Origin: a virus
Lineage: Duplodnaviria; Caudoviricetes
DNA: 59,789 nucleotides
Virus record (IMG/VR): IMGVR_UViG_3300032225_000982
Coordinates: 1 to 59,789 of that record
Reading direction: 5' to 3' (one strand)
The position numbers and the translations under genes were made by a program. Under the pieces are notes generated by a model. The model searched no databases. It was not told the origin of the DNA and worked only from the letters and a program-made list of their open reading frames with translations. This document shows positions 41,097 through 58,981 of this stretch, in pieces. How positions within the stretch are numbered: the first letter of the stretch is position 1; every line of letters begins with the position of its first letter.

Positions 41097-44000
41097 ATGT
41101 CCGTCCCCTACACATTCGGCACAGCCGTCGGAACAACTCAGCTTGCGAAGCTGGACACGAACTTCTCGACGCCGCTAACGCTAGGTTCAACGTCGCTGAC
41201 GTTGGGCGGGACGTTCACGACGATTGCGGGGCTGACGCTGACCAGCCCCGTGTTGACGACCCCGAACCTCGGGACGCCAAGCGCCGCCGTTCTGACAAAC
41301 GCCACGGGCCTCGTCTTGGGCACCGGCGTCACTGGCACGCTCCCCGTCGCTAACGGCGGCACGGGGCTTTCCGCCACACCCGCAGTCGGCCAAATCGACA
41401 TTGGCACTGGCACCGGCTTTGCTCGCACTACCCTGACCGCTGGCACAGGTATCGCCATCAGCAACGCCGCCGGGGCCGTCACCATTTCGGCTACCGCCGT
41501 GACTGGAATCACGGGACCGACTGGCGCGTCTGGCCCTACGGGTTCGACCGGCCCGACGGGCGGCAGCGGGGCAACGGGACCGACTGGCGCTTCTGGCCCT
41601 ACGGGCGCCACTGGGGCCACAGGAACGGGCGCAACAGGTTCTACGGGCGTCGGCTACTCCGGACTGACAAGCGCGTCTTCTGCGGTCATTGGAACGGGCG
41701 GGAAGGCATTCACCACTAACTTCGCTTCCACCGCAACGGCGTTTGCAGTTTCGCAGCGGGTCCGCGTGGCCAGCACTGCGTCGCCTTCCAATTTCATGGA
41801 AGGCACAATCACTTCGTTTTCAAGCACGAACATCGTCGTTACCGTTGACGCCATCGGCGGCAGCGGAACCTTTTCTGGCTGGACGTTCTCGGCTTCCGGC
41901 GCAATGGGTGCCACCGGCTCTACGGGCGCGACCGGTGCTACGGGCACAGGACCAACTGGCGCGACTGGCGCGGGTGTGACTGGAGCCACCGGTGCCACAG
42001 GCGCTACTGGTTTGACTGGTGTGACCGGCGCTACTGGTGTGACGGGCGCGGGCGTGACGGGCGCTACAGGTGCGACTGGCGCAAGCGGCACCGGCCCCAC
42101 CGGTGCAACTGGCGCAACTGGCGCTGGTGTGACCGGTGTCACAGGCGCCACCGGTGCCACAGGCGCGACCGGCACCGGCCCAACGGGTGCGGGTGTAACG
42201 GGTGCCACAGGCGCCACAGGCGCCACCGGTGCCACAGGCGCGACCGGCACCGGCCCGACGGGTGCGGGTGTGACGGGCGCGACTGGGGCGACGGGCGCTA
42301 CAGGTGCGACTGGAGCAAGCGGTACGGGTCCAACCGGTGCTACTGGCGCGGGCGTTACCGGCGCGACTGGCGTTACAGGCGCAACTGGTCCGACAGGTGT
42401 GACGGGCGTGACGGGCGCGGGCGTGACGGGCGCAACGGGTAGCACCGGCGCTACCGGTGCAAGCGGCACTGGTCCGACTGGTAGCACAGGCGCTACCGGT
42501 GCAAGCGGTCCCACTGGCGCAAGCGGAACGGGCGCGACTGGCCCCACCGGCGCAACCGGCCTTGGCTATGCTGGCTTGACCAGCGCCTCGGCGGCGGTGA
42601 TTGGCACGGGCGGGAAAGCCTTCACCACCAACCTTGCGGCCACGGCGACTGCTTTTGTCGTCGGGCAGCGCGTGCGCGCTGCAAATACCGCCACGCCTTC
42701 AAACTACATGGAAGGCATTGTCACTTCGTTCTCCGGAACGAACATCATTATAAATGTGGATGCCACGGGCGGCACAGGCACTTTCTCCGGCTGGACTTTT
42801 TCCGTTGCAGGCAACGCGGGCGCTACGGGGCCGACCGGCGTCACGGGGCCGACCGGCGGCGGAGCGGTTTTGCCAATTTCCAGCGCAGACATTTCATTCT
42901 TGCAAGCGGGAACAGGCGCCGTTGTTCGCACCGGCCAAGCTAAATATCGGGATTTTGTCTCGGTGTTGGACTTCGGCGCCGTGGGCAATGGTATCGCGGA
43001 CGATAGAGTTGCCATTCAGAACGCGCTGAACACTGGCAAAAATGTCTATCTTCCGCCCGGCAACTACCTCATCTCTGACCCCGGCCTTTCGATGTTTACT
43101 AATGGCCAGCGGATGTATGGCGAAAGCGGTGCGGGCTGGCTAACGATCATTGAATGGAATAGCACGAACGGCAGCAACAATAACGCCATCACTATTTCTG
43201 CCCTTCAGCATTGCATTATTGAATCCATCAACATTCGGCGCAATCCTAGCAACCCTGTCAATTTAACAAGCGGTTTTGGCGTTTCGTTTGCAAATGGCGC
43301 ATATTTCTGCGAAGTGCGGACGTGCAAAATCACGGGCACAGGCAATGGCATCTCGATCACGGGCACCGGCAATCAAGTTATTGATTGTGAAATGCGGGAA
43401 TTCTCCGGAACGTATGGCATCCGTTATTATGGCACGTCGGCGCTACAAGGCTTGCGCGCCGTTCTCGATCGAGTTTTGATTGATAACCTTTTGGTTATCA
43501 CGAACATTTCGGCCACGTCGCCTGCGGTCATCACGACCACACATAATCACGGCCTGAGCACTGGCAATTCCATCATAATTGAAAAGGTTAGCGGCACAGG
43601 GGGAATAGAGGGCATCAATAGCTCGTCGCGCGTGGTGACGGTGCTGACGTCCAATACATTCAGCGTCGCATATAACGCTACCGGGACAACATATAACGCC
43701 TACAGCGGCAATATATATGGGCCGAATAACTTTATTCACCTTGTGTTTGACTCTTGGGTTCACAGCCTCATCATCACGGCTTGCGCGTTTTTGAACGGCG
43801 GCACCGCCGTCTATATGACGGACTACGCCAACACGACCGGCTCTTACCCGACTTGGTTGCACGCATTTGACCTTGAGTGCGACCACCAATGGAACACCGC
43901 CGTTATCCTGAATGGCGGCGAAGGCTGTTTTATCACCACAAGCTGGATCGGGTCTTCGCTTTCTGGCAACGGCCTTGTCACTATGCCTCCATCCCCATCG

Positions 44001-57293: not shown

Positions 57294-58981
57294 TTCCGCT
57301 GATAGTTTGCACGACGCGGCCTGAAAACTCTGGGCCTTCGCCGCTGACCGTGATGCGCGAGAGCGTCCACGCCTACGGCGCGCTACAAACCGAATTGCAG
57401 GTCTTCCGCACCGGCCACGGCAATTTTGGCGCCGCATACAATTATGCAATGCAAAAAGCGTTTGAGACGCACGACGAAATTCTGATTGCCAATGACGACA
57501 TTGTGTTGAACCCATCGACCATCCGCGTGCTGATGGAAGATGTCGCCACCCTGCGCGCTACGGTGCCGCGCATTGGCCTTGTAGCTGCACGATCCGACTC
57601 CGTGCGCTATTGCCAGAACATCCACCATATGCGGAATCCCGACGCGGTGGAGGTTGAAGCCGTCTCGCCTATCCTGGCTTGGATTAGTCGTGAGGCTTTT
57701 GAAGCCGCGCCGTTTCCGCCCATCAATTGGTATTCGGATGATGTGCAGTGCGCCGACCTTTCCGCGCTGGGCTATCAGCATTTCGTTTCGCGTGCCTATG
57801 TGCATCATGTCGGATCGTCCACCATCGGGCACGACAATCAGCGCCACATCGACGAGGCGCGACCATGGATCGTCGCAAACCGCCCCCAATACGCCACGCG
57901 CTGGGGCTTGATAACGAGGCCACCCTTGAAAATCGCTGTTTACGCCATCGCCAAAAACGAGGCACAATTTGTAGAACGCTTTTGCGAAGCCGCCCGGGAC
58001 GCCGACGCCATCGTGATTGCCGACACCGGCAGCACGGATGAGACGGCGGAACTAGCCGTGAAGTGCGGCGCGCTGGTGCATACCATCTCCGTGCGCCCAT
58101 GGCGGTTCGACGTGGCGCGCAACGCCGCCCTGGCCCTGGTGCCTGCCGACATCGACGTGTGTGTCAGCGTCGATCTGGATGAGGTGCTGGAACCCAACTG
58201 GCGGGAGGAGATTGAACGCCTCTGGGTGCTCAACGAGACGACGCGAATGCGCTACCCGTTCGACTGCGGCCAGGGGCTGATTTTCCAGAACGAGAAAATT
58301 CACTCTCGGCACGGCTATCGGTGGGCATACCTCTGCCACGAATACATCACGGCTGATAAGCGCATCACCGAGGCGTGGGTGGACACCGACAAGTTGCTGA
58401 TGAAGCATCTGCCCGACCCGACCAAAAGCCGTGGCCAATATCTGGACATGCTGAAAGCGGCGCGCGACGAAGACCCCAACTGCGAGCGCAGCGCATTTTA
58501 TTATGCGCGCGAGCTTTACTACCATGCGCAACATCAAGAGTGCGTTGACGCCTTTGCGCACTACCTCGCTATGCCCAGCGCCAAGTGGCCGAACAACAGG
58601 TCATTTGCCTATCGGACACGGGGCCGGTGCTATTGGCAATTGGGCGAGCAGGCAAAGGCGGAGAAAGAATTCCAACTGGCTTCGTTGGAGGAACCCAACA
58701 CCCGGGAACCTTGGTGCGAGCTTTCGGTGTTGTGCTACCGGCAAGGCCGGTGGGCGGAATCCTTCGCTTACGCCATGCGAGCGCTGGCGATCACAATCAA
58801 AGTCATCACATTTTCATCTGATCCCGCAGTTTGGGGCGCGCAACCGCATGACCATGCTGCTATTGCAGCGTATCGCTTAGGCATGAAGTCAGTCGCCATT
58901 GAGCAAGGGCAACTGGCGATAGCTTTGGCGCCGGATGATGATCGGTTGAAAGCCAATCTCAAGTTTTACATGGAGGACTGA
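57290..58981 (+). CDS. Double GT2 glycosyltransferase with TPR tail
   Basis: Domain 1: NFGAAYN, ANDD, WYSDD, HHVGS. Domain 2: AKNE, DTGSTD, FDVARN, DLDE, HE. TPR-like helices follow. Confidence 0.87.
   Translation: MIPLIVCTTRPENSGPSPLTVMRESVHAYGALQTELQVFRTGHGNFGAAYNYAMQKAFETHDEILIANDDIVLNPSTIRVLMEDVATLRATVPRIGLVAARSDSVRYCQNIHHMRNPDAVEVEAVSPILAWISREAFEAAPFPPINWYSDDVQCADLSALGYQHFVSRAYVHHVGSSTIGHDNQRHIDEARPWIVANRPQYATRWGLITRPPLKIAVYAIAKNEAQFVERFCEAARDADAIVIADTGSTDETAELAVKCGALVHTISVRPWRFDVARNAALALVPADIDVCVSVDLDEVLEPNWREEIERLWVLNETTRMRYPFDCGQGLIFQNEKIHSRHGYRWAYLCHEYITADKRITEAWVDTDKLLMKHLPDPTKSRGQYLDMLKAARDEDPNCERSAFYYARELYYHAQHQECVDAFAHYLAMPSAKWPNNRSFAYRTRGRCYWQLGEQAKAEKEFQLASLEEPNTREPWCELSVLCYRQGRWAESFAYAMRALAITIKVITFSSDPAVWGAQPHDHAAIAAYRLGMKSVAIEQGQLAIALAPDDDRLKANLKFYMED

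Follow-up and report, generated by a model that had tools for sequence, protein, structure and literature searches.

We analysed a 59,789-nucleotide (nt) stretch of DNA from a tailed virus (Duplodnaviria; Caudoviricetes), referred to here as the window, which makes up the entire IMG/VR record IMGVR_UViG_3300032225_000982. Two tail fibre genes in the window encode collagen-like repeats of the form Gly-X-Thr (G-X-T), and farther downstream the same operon encodes a 563-amino-acid (aa) enzyme whose core combines a glycosyltransferase (GT) domain of the GT2 family with tetratricopeptide repeats (TPRs). The family to which this GT2-TPR core belongs is strongly, but not universally, tied to G-X-T collagen genes. 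From sequence comparison, we consider it probable that the core acts in the cytoplasm, O-glycosylating threonine in the G-X-T repeats of the fibres before these trimerise or while they do so.

The first fibre gene (41097–45563, + strand), an open frame with matches to tail fibre/spike PHROGs, encodes a 1488-aa tail fibre or spike that is a proposed glycosylation substrate. In this protein, an N-terminal G-X-T stalk (residues 137–589) is followed by a tailspike-like central part and, at the C-terminus, by an intramolecular chaperone of the Peptidase_S74 type (PF13884, 2.1e-09, residues 1357–1444). The second fibre gene (48701–51907, + strand) encodes a 1068-aa tail fibre (phrog_6320, 7.9e-101; phrog_9017 at residues 973–1067), the proposed main substrate, in which collagen runs extend over residues 45–920 and are followed by a C-terminal tail-fibre domain. 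Counting as a collagen run any series of at least four consecutive Gly-X-Y triplets, we found 78 triplets in 11 runs in fibre 1, with threonine at the Y position of 57 (73%), and 191 triplets in 19 runs in fibre 2, with threonine at the Y position of 171 (89.5%). The X position is mainly occupied by alanine (40/78 triplets in fibre 1 and 75/191 in fibre 2), followed by proline, serine and valine, with prolines being few. Both proteins exceeded the gathering cut-off of the Pfam Collagen family (PF01391; 27.2 bits), fibre 1 with 39.8 bits (E = 3.8e-10) and fibre 2 with 166.6 bits over seven stretches (E = 1e-49). At the DNA level, a (GXT)x5 pattern matched 97 times in the window, always on the + strand and always within the two fibre genes, against an expectation of 0.00 from 100 dinucleotide shuffles. 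The triplet counts, the Pfam matches and the comparison with shuffled DNA confirm the first-pass annotation of this region, which had described two fibre genes with long collagen runs carrying threonine at Y. In fibre 2, the runs between residues ~456 and 680 are interrupted at regular intervals by two-residue insertions (…G-S-T-V-T-G…, …G-A-S-I-T-G…), and repeat spacings of 51 and 60 nt recur; the breaks in fibre 1 are G-T-G and G-A-G-V-T.

The GT2 catalytic domain of the core (residues 214–~390; 57929–58459, + strand), the proposed priming O-glycosyltransferase, matched PF00535 over residues 220–308 with 39.1 bits (cut-off 23.3; E = 9.7e-10). It is followed by the TPR domain (residues ~391–563; 58460–58981, + strand), the proposed substrate-recognition module, with TPRs at residues 439–547 (TPR_2 at 439–470, 2.7e-08; TPR_12 at 475–547). 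Residues 214–562 together matched phrog_13126 at 1.3e-93. Among 34 aligned sequences, the invariant residues of the core include D245-T-G-S-x-D250, D295-x-D297-E298 (a DxD motif), C349-H-E and many TPR positions. The N-terminal domain (residues 1–213; 57290–57928, + strand) appears GT-A/GT2-like and is a candidate for a second, extending GT. Its predicted structure matched GT2 clusters (PF13641/PF00535) in the ESM Atlas with template-modelling (TM) scores of 0.77–0.80, it has invariant N68-D69-D70, D150-D151 and H172-H173, and its relatives include 432 stand-alone proteins of ~200 aa, some of which are named GT2 by their source. A match to the NCBIfam family HpsN (4.4e-4) fell far under the cut-off. 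The initial description of the enzyme as two GT2 domains plus TPRs therefore stands, by Pfam, for the second GT2 domain and the TPRs, and the first domain is GT2-like only by the predicted-structure match.

A homolog search with the core scored 8000 candidates, 5075 of them at E <= 0.001, and domains were counted in the 120 that were listed; a full scan of 1.84 billion representatives gave 1,095 core relatives (50%-identity representatives) at E <= 1e-30. The constant part of the family is the GT2-TPR core of ~350 aa, with stand-alone cores of 356–365 aa at ~62% identity. Of the 120 listed homologs, 17 have a fused methyltransferase domain (PF13578 in 9 and class-I types in 8), and 8 have a fused PF04488 glycosyltransferase. 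The placement of the N-terminal domain also varies, since it is fused N-terminally here, lies C-terminal of the core in homolog P0072, and is a separate open reading frame (ORF) in another phage. A constant GT2-TPR core with variable extra modules is the pattern expected of one priming enzyme with variable glycan-tailoring enzymes. In genome G002 (the genome behind locus L083, with a wedge protein 74% identical), the N-terminal domain and the core are two overlapping ORFs of 207 and 379 aa (G002:C1:52071-53740). The only GT chains matched in a PDB profile search with the core were 7msk (9.2e-07), GmaR (22ao, 1.6e-06) and SunS (7msp, 0.007); TPR structures were matched as well. We take SunS to be a peptide S-glycosyltransferase and 7msk to be ThuS, likewise such an enzyme; these Bacillus glycocin enzymes presumably modify cysteine in small peptides.

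At least 588 viral stretches encode relatives of the core, and we analysed the gene context of the best 80, counting as a collagen ORF any that lies on the strand of the GT, has 12 triplets or more and has threonine at Y in 40% or more of them. A collagen ORF was found upstream of the GT in 19/19 loci with at least 8 kb of upstream sequence, in 28/30 with at least 5 kb and in 39/46 with at least 3 kb, and in 12 of the best 80 loci the collagen ORF directly adjoins the core, the two being −21 to +30 nt apart. Of 18 window genes checked over the 80 loci, those that often recur are the GT core itself (80/80) and the genes for an 82-aa protein (53/80) and a multi-transmembrane protein (29/80); the others do not. 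Homology to the window's fibres outside the repeats was found in few of these loci, and the GT core stays ~60% identical. The arrangement is also present in an isolated phage of Actinomycetia, DSL-LC01 (129 kb), in which two collagen genes, a hypothetical gene, a halogenase-like gene and the GT gene (43% identity) follow one another in a single run; methyltransferases and a UDP-galactopyranose mutase are encoded near the GT, and the genome contains 15 matches to the (GXT)x5 pattern.

As a lineage-matched control, we took 49 viral contigs that share the baseplate wedge and searched the 18 that are at least 40 kb long. The GT was found in 2/18, (GXT)x5 runs were found in the same 2/18, and the other 16 had neither. 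The two positive contigs are the closest relatives in the set, such that they may represent a single evolutionary event. In a reverse test, 80 listed loci were selected by the DNA pattern (GXT)x7; 43 of them lie on contigs of at least 25 kb, of which 32 were searchable. Strong core matches (E <= 1e-90) were found in 6/32 and weak GT2 matches in a further 5/32, as compared to no match in 41 contigs of at least 25 kb drawn by an arbitrary 14-mer. The difference has a Fisher p of 0.005 for the strong matches (6/32 vs 0/41) and of 3.6e-5 for all matches (11/32 vs 0/41); the control set is not habitat-matched and includes many proviruses of isolates. Within the 80 pattern-selected loci, 7 hold the core (34–55% identity), each time downstream of the collagen gene and on the same strand. 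The predicted co-occurrence of this GT family with G-X-T collagen genes was observed in the flanks of the viral GT loci, in the wedge-sharing set and in the reverse test.

We also analysed the best 80 of 589 relatives encoded in bacterial genomes. These are mostly from spore-forming Clostridia and Bacilli, at 36–44% identity, and include the genera Flavonifractor, Lawsonibacter, Lacrimispora, Brevibacillus and Paenibacillus. In 25/65 loci that have at least 1.5 kb of upstream sequence, the end of a collagen ORF with threonine as the commonest residue at Y lies no more than 300 nt upstream of the core, and such an ORF is present somewhere in 48/80 bacterial loci. Three of the collagen-GT loci are flanked by housekeeping genes (for LeuRS, a histidine kinase, a P-type ATPase and GGDEF/EAL proteins), indicating that they are cellular rather than prophage loci. 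In two chromosomal, non-prophage loci (L431:7989-10192 and L453:7986-10194), a tandem pair of GT2-TPR paralogs, both ~365 aa long, comes after Thr-rich collagen genes of great length, which in loci of this type have up to 220 triplets, 206 with threonine; no collagen gene lies within 8 kb in other loci where the match is ~2.2 kb long (Lacrimispora, Brevibacillus). In a FastTree tree of 174 GT cores, built with no rows dropped, the viral clade contains 50 collagen-linked members, 2 that are not linked and 34 without enough flanking sequence, and the Firmicutes clade contains 41 that are linked, 20 that are not and 11 that are uninformative. Collagen-linked members are also present in a small clade with DSL-LC01 and in two deep viral branches.

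SgtA of Clostridioides difficile is a 358-aa protein with a GT-A domain (residues 1–260) followed by TPRs (262–358), and its gene adjoins bclA3, which encodes a collagen-like protein of the exosporium; the enzyme is Mn/Mg-dependent and adds beta-O-linked N-acetylglucosamine (beta-O-GlcNAc) to threonine of GPT-repeat peptides in vitro, and its authors did not find the enzymes that extend the glycan (all according to passages of PMC7157674). Set beside this description, the phage core has a similar length (~350 aa) and the same order of a GT-A domain and C-terminal TPRs, and it has an invariant DxD motif where SgtA is metal-dependent. Its gene likewise accompanies a Gly-X-Thr-rich collagen-like gene, here within one operon and 5.4 kb apart, and bacterial relatives of the phage core are found in the same taxa as SgtA, next to Thr-rich collagen genes. 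The likeness to the SgtA family that had first been suggested for this domain is thus consistent, in architecture, size and gene context, with the published account (PMC7157674, in part), the comparison being one with the description of SgtA alone. Unlike SgtA, the phage enzyme is virus-encoded, its presumed substrates are tail fibres rather than a spore coat, its core shares a chain with a second, putative GT-A domain, and its gene is coupled to that of a methyltransferase-like protein. The gene order differs, since sgtA is upstream of bclA3 (PMC7157674, in part), whereas here, as in most loci, it is the GT gene that lies downstream. The repeats also differ, being Gly-Pro-Thr in BclA3 and mostly Gly-Ala-Thr in the phage.

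GmaR of Listeria, a flagellin O-GlcNAc transferase, shares the order of a GT domain followed by TPRs and modifies a structural protein (passages of PMC9638930); unlike the phage enzyme, it has an extra antirepressor domain. The core resembles GmaR and SunS/ThuS remotely and over no more than ~90 residues, all in the GT domain. A viral parallel is A064R of chlorovirus PBCV-1, which has two rhamnosyltransferase domains and a methyltransferase that caps the terminal sugar of the capsid glycan (excerpts of PMC7826918). Like A064R, the enzyme described here is virus-encoded, and its relatives fuse methyltransferase, GT and GT-TPR in one chain. By contrast, A064R comes from a eukaryotic giant virus, acts on N-linked glycans of the major capsid protein through unrelated domains, and elongates rather than primes. 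Our full-text literature searches for a link between phage collagen fibres and GTs returned nothing relevant, and SgtA was the only worked-out enzyme for glycosylation of collagen threonine that we came across.

The gene that overlaps the start of the GT gene (56766–57293, + strand) encodes a 175-aa protein resembling class-I S-adenosylmethionine (SAM) methyltransferases (Methyltransf_24/CmcI-like), the proposed glycan O-methyltransferase. Residues 35–43 are E-F-G-V-R-W-G-A-S, which we take to resemble SAM-binding motif I. Its ESM Atlas neighbours and its longer homologs carry PF13578 or PF04989, and the longer homologs, which are 38–56% identical over nearly the full length, are fused to GT Pfam domains in 35 of the 120 listed and to TPRs in several. 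When the protein was compared by BLASTP with methyltransferase domains that are fused to two GT homologs, the matches reached only E = 5e-5 over 29–38 residues; the window protein and these fused domains appear to belong to the same Pfam family without being close orthologs. Neither the methyltransferase nor the 563-aa enzyme has a transmembrane or hydrophobic segment, and both are predicted to be soluble.

ATGA overlaps link the gene for the 82-aa protein (56521–56769, + strand) to the methyltransferase gene, and the methyltransferase gene to the GT gene (57290–58981), in agreement with the coupling proposed at first; the identification of the coupled protein as a SAM methyltransferase corresponds to a weak match. 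The 82-aa protein, which is hydrophobic at its N-terminus by eye only (maximum Kyte-Doolittle value 1.2), is the commonest neighbour in the best 80 viral loci, where its gene usually comes right after the GT gene and before endolysin genes. It probably belongs to the lysis cassette, the methyltransferase and GT genes having been inserted after its gene in this phage. The late operon had been thought to end with the methyltransferase and the GT, but it resumes 2 nt after position 58981 with a gene for a multi-transmembrane, holin-like protein of 171 aa (58984–59499, + strand; phrog_1544), the start of the lysis genes, and with a GH19-type endolysin gene (59415–59789, + strand; weak PF00182) that continues over a terminal repeat into window positions 1–372. 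The two genes therefore sit at the junction between the fibre module and the lysis genes rather than at an operon end. On the other side, the fibre module is marked by a tail-fibre assembly chaperone (54214–54684, + strand; PF16778, 1.3e-18; phrog_4912). Right after fibre 2, a gene at 51907–53931 (+ strand) encodes a 674-aa protein with ~11 tandem repeats of 141 nt (47 aa) and weak beta-propeller/PD40/WD40 matches, which may be a distal receptor-binding part of the fibre.

Bases 1–123 of the window are identical (100%) to bases 59667–59789. This terminal direct repeat, together with the endolysin frame that spans the junction, indicates that the genome is complete, circularly permuted and 59,666 bp long. 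Replication genes (two helicases and a primase) lie at 7.6–17.7 kb and the terminase and portal genes at 20–23 kb, and genes for a tail sheath (31072; phrog_205), a tape-measure/transglycosylase protein (33937), a baseplate hub (36976; phrog_196) and a baseplate wedge (38957; phrog_6) follow, upstream of the collagen fibre genes, consistent with the earlier assignment to a myovirus. Among the early genes, one at 3962–4390 (+ strand) encodes a 142-aa protein with a DPBB_1 domain of the lytic-transglycosylase type (PF03330, 2.5e-23). Just 5' of the terminase gene, at 18697–19716 (+ strand), is a gene for a 339-aa protein of the TAGT glycosyltransferase family (PF20691, E = 2.8e-40; phrog_842), in a low-GC island (GC 0.44 vs ~0.59). 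The family, named from Pfam, is one that we take to be tied to DNA hypermodification, and the protein is probably a recently acquired DNA-hypermodification enzyme; no TET/JBP partner was found among the 28 window proteins scanned with Pfam. A DNA near-identity search with 23.8 kb against 50,697 phage records gave a single, irrelevant match of 363 bp, and hence no close cultured relative in that set. The probable Gram-negative host named in the first-pass annotation found no support: the sole host hint is a related contig, L376 (58,913 bp), binned with a metagenome-assembled genome of 'Candidatus Limnocylindrus' (Chloroflexota). The 13.4 kb of L376 that we examined are collinear with the window at 80–87% nucleotide identity, cross the window's ends and carry the methyltransferase gene. 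The contig represents the same phage and may be mis-binned or a hint of a host among the Chloroflexota.

From the observed genes, domains, motifs, translational coupling and collagen linkage, we infer the following scheme for what the enzyme modifies, with which sugar, in what order and to what effect on the fibre. In the cytoplasm of the infected cell, the TPR domain would hold the still unfolded G-X-T repeats, and the GT2 domain would use a nucleotide sugar to attach the first sugar to the threonine hydroxyl. GT2 enzymes invert, and a beta-linkage would therefore be expected, as in the beta-O-GlcNAc made by SgtA. The N-terminal GT-A domain would add a second sugar, and the methyltransferase would O-methylate the glycan. 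The outcome would be a collagen stalk coated with glycans, in which glycosyl-threonine could act as a stabiliser, as hydroxyproline does in animal collagen. The parts given to the N-terminal domain as extender and to the methyltransferase as cap are plausible but weaker than the rest of the scheme; an order of priming, extension and capping would fit a family in which the GT2-TPR core is constant and the second GT and the methyltransferase are variable.

A broader reading, which we regard as possible but rather doubtful, is that a mobile, modular cassette of an SgtA-like primer and interchangeable GTs and methyltransferases travels with G-X-T fibres across unrelated phages and has a common ancestry with the exosporium BclA/SgtA systems found in spore-formers. 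Glycosyl-threonine would then stabilise the triple helix in place of hydroxyproline, folding or stability of the fibre would depend on the viral enzyme, and variation in the glycan cap would make fibre surfaces diverse, for adsorption or shielding. If true, this would explain the excess of Thr-containing triplets in viral collagens. According to the relevant sections of a 2025 survey, the triplets Thr-Gly-Ala and Thr-Gly-Pro are anomalously frequent in viral collagens, and (Gly-Pro-Thr)10 is a random coil that forms a triple helix only with galactosylated threonine; these sections leave open which agent glycosylates (PMC11923368).

Several observations weigh against glycosylation of the fibres by this enzyme, or against parts of the scheme. 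In the window, the GT gene is 5.4 kb downstream of the nearer collagen gene, with seven genes between them. The GT is always at the boundary between fibre module and lysis genes, a classic moron site, and the genes most often found around it serve lysis rather than sugar metabolism. Among the ten largest clusters of neighbouring genes in the best 80 viral loci there were endolysins, an adaptor and unknowns, and no sugar-nucleotide or glycan genes. No strong core match was found in 26/32 of the records selected for G-X-T runs, and only 2/10 of those at least 90% complete have one. Most phages with G-X-T collagen therefore lack the GT, which is not a general requirement of such fibres. In the tree, 25/174 cores have no collagen gene in their locus despite at least 5 kb of upstream sequence. 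The Pseudomonas jumbo phages PaBG, Lu11 and HRDY3, whose GT homolog is 32–34% identical, have no five-triplet G-X-T run genome-wide, and two Alexandravirus genomes (from Erwinia and Dickeya) have one short run each, 40 kb from the GT homolog. In jumbo phages (L131-L135), the GT lies in a conserved block of genes for an NAD-dependent DNA ligase, a hypothetical protein, the GT, two hypothetical proteins and the head maturation protease, suggesting a different substrate in that branch, perhaps one related to the head.

The extending and capping steps face evidence of their own. The N-terminal domain had no Pfam match in the window protein, and Pfam matched only 1 of 24 homologs; hhalign gave a probability of 0.25% for its relationship to the core. 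A proposed comparison of both GT domains with SunS turned out differently for the two, since the core profile finds SunS, as described above, and a PDB search with the N-terminal profile found no GT. For the methyltransferase, the Pfam scores are sub-threshold (PF04989, 20.9 bits with a cut-off of 23.2; PF13578, 20.7 bits with a cut-off of 26.3), and searches of NCBIfam and the PDB with this protein matched nothing. A methyltransferase homolog is present in only 1/80 related viral loci (L003), and the gene is absent from two viral-contig loci whose GT is 97–98% identical. The methyltransferase, which was part of the system as first proposed, is not conserved in it: its gene is a recent addition and a variable accessory.

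We weighed other substrates against the collagen repeats. The enzyme might glycosylate other virion proteins, such as non-collagen parts of the fibres, the Gly-rich protein encoded at 55410, or capsid or tail-tube subunits, and we consider this unlikely. In mycobacteriophages, phage GTs placed with structural genes decorate virion proteins, the targets being the C-termini of capsid and tail-tube subunits rather than collagen repeats (passages of PMC12619734, citing Freeman et al. 2023). A TPR domain could bind any extended peptide, and in jumbo phages the homolog, with no collagen in its vicinity, is encoded two genes away from the head maturation protease. However, the G-X-T repeat is the one feature common to upstream fibre genes that are otherwise very different, the cellular relatives adjoin collagen genes, and SgtA acts on collagen threonine (PMC7157674, in part). 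It is a little less likely still that the gene is a moron whose product modifies the host envelope (lipopolysaccharide or lipooligosaccharide, teichoic acid or another surface glycan), blocking superinfection or aiding release, with its proximity to the fibre genes being positional only. This would agree with the PHROG label, 'beta-1,4-glycosyltransferase' in the category 'moron, auxiliary metabolic gene and host takeover', with phage records that call a homolog a lipooligosaccharide glucosyltransferase, and with the location at the fibre/lysis junction, next to holin-like proteins and endolysins. Envelope modification is also the field's default reading of phage GTs, and papers on aquatic phages with both a GT and collagen-like proteins read the GT as acting on DNA or the envelope (PMC7029224, PMC10202952, each in part). 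On the other hand, both enzymes are soluble by prediction, with no transmembrane segment, and both the fusion to TPRs and the closest relatives of known structure suggest that the acceptor is a protein or peptide. Moreover, 16 wedge-related phages have neither the GT nor G-X-T runs, indicating that the GT tracks collagen, the presence of fibres in these phages being unchecked, and the annotated parts of the window showed neither an integrase nor a lysogeny module, in a search that was not exhaustive. For its lack of transmembrane segments, we rejected the possibility of a membrane GT.

Modification of a host protein such as flagellin or pilin, in a takeover or exclusion role like that of GmaR, is very improbable in our estimation; GmaR is one of the three solved relatives (PMC9638930, in part), but the gene lies in a late structural/lysis operon and not among the early genes, and such a role would leave the collagen linkage unexplained. 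Glycosylation of the phage's DNA, a function that phage GTs often have (PMC10202952 and PMC12619734, each in part), has the smallest probability of these alternatives, and we rejected it: the genome has its own TAGT-family gene (18697–19716), probably for a role of this kind, and neither the GT2-TPR architecture nor the collagen linkage fits a DNA substrate. Returning to glycosylation of collagen threonine in the fibres, this part of the first-pass proposal, with an SgtA-like enzyme as the agent, finds strong support in comparative genomics and in the SgtA/BclA3 precedent; the Gram-negative host finds none, and the methyltransferase is an accessory.

The occurrence of threonine at Y in bacterial and viral collagens has long been noted as an oddity (sections of PMC11923368 and PMC8968730), and collagen-like stalks rank with the most frequent components of phage fibres. 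If enzymes of this family do act on these repeats, a great many environmental phages would join mycobacteriophages and giant viruses in having glycosylated virions, there would be a mechanism by which viral G-X-T collagens are stabilised, and the fibre glycans could matter for host recognition, immune recognition and protease resistance. Read from genomes, this is a well-supported hypothesis in which the known bacterial SgtA/BclA system would extend to phage tail fibres in a modular and very widespread form, and many environmental phages may glycosylate their own fibres.

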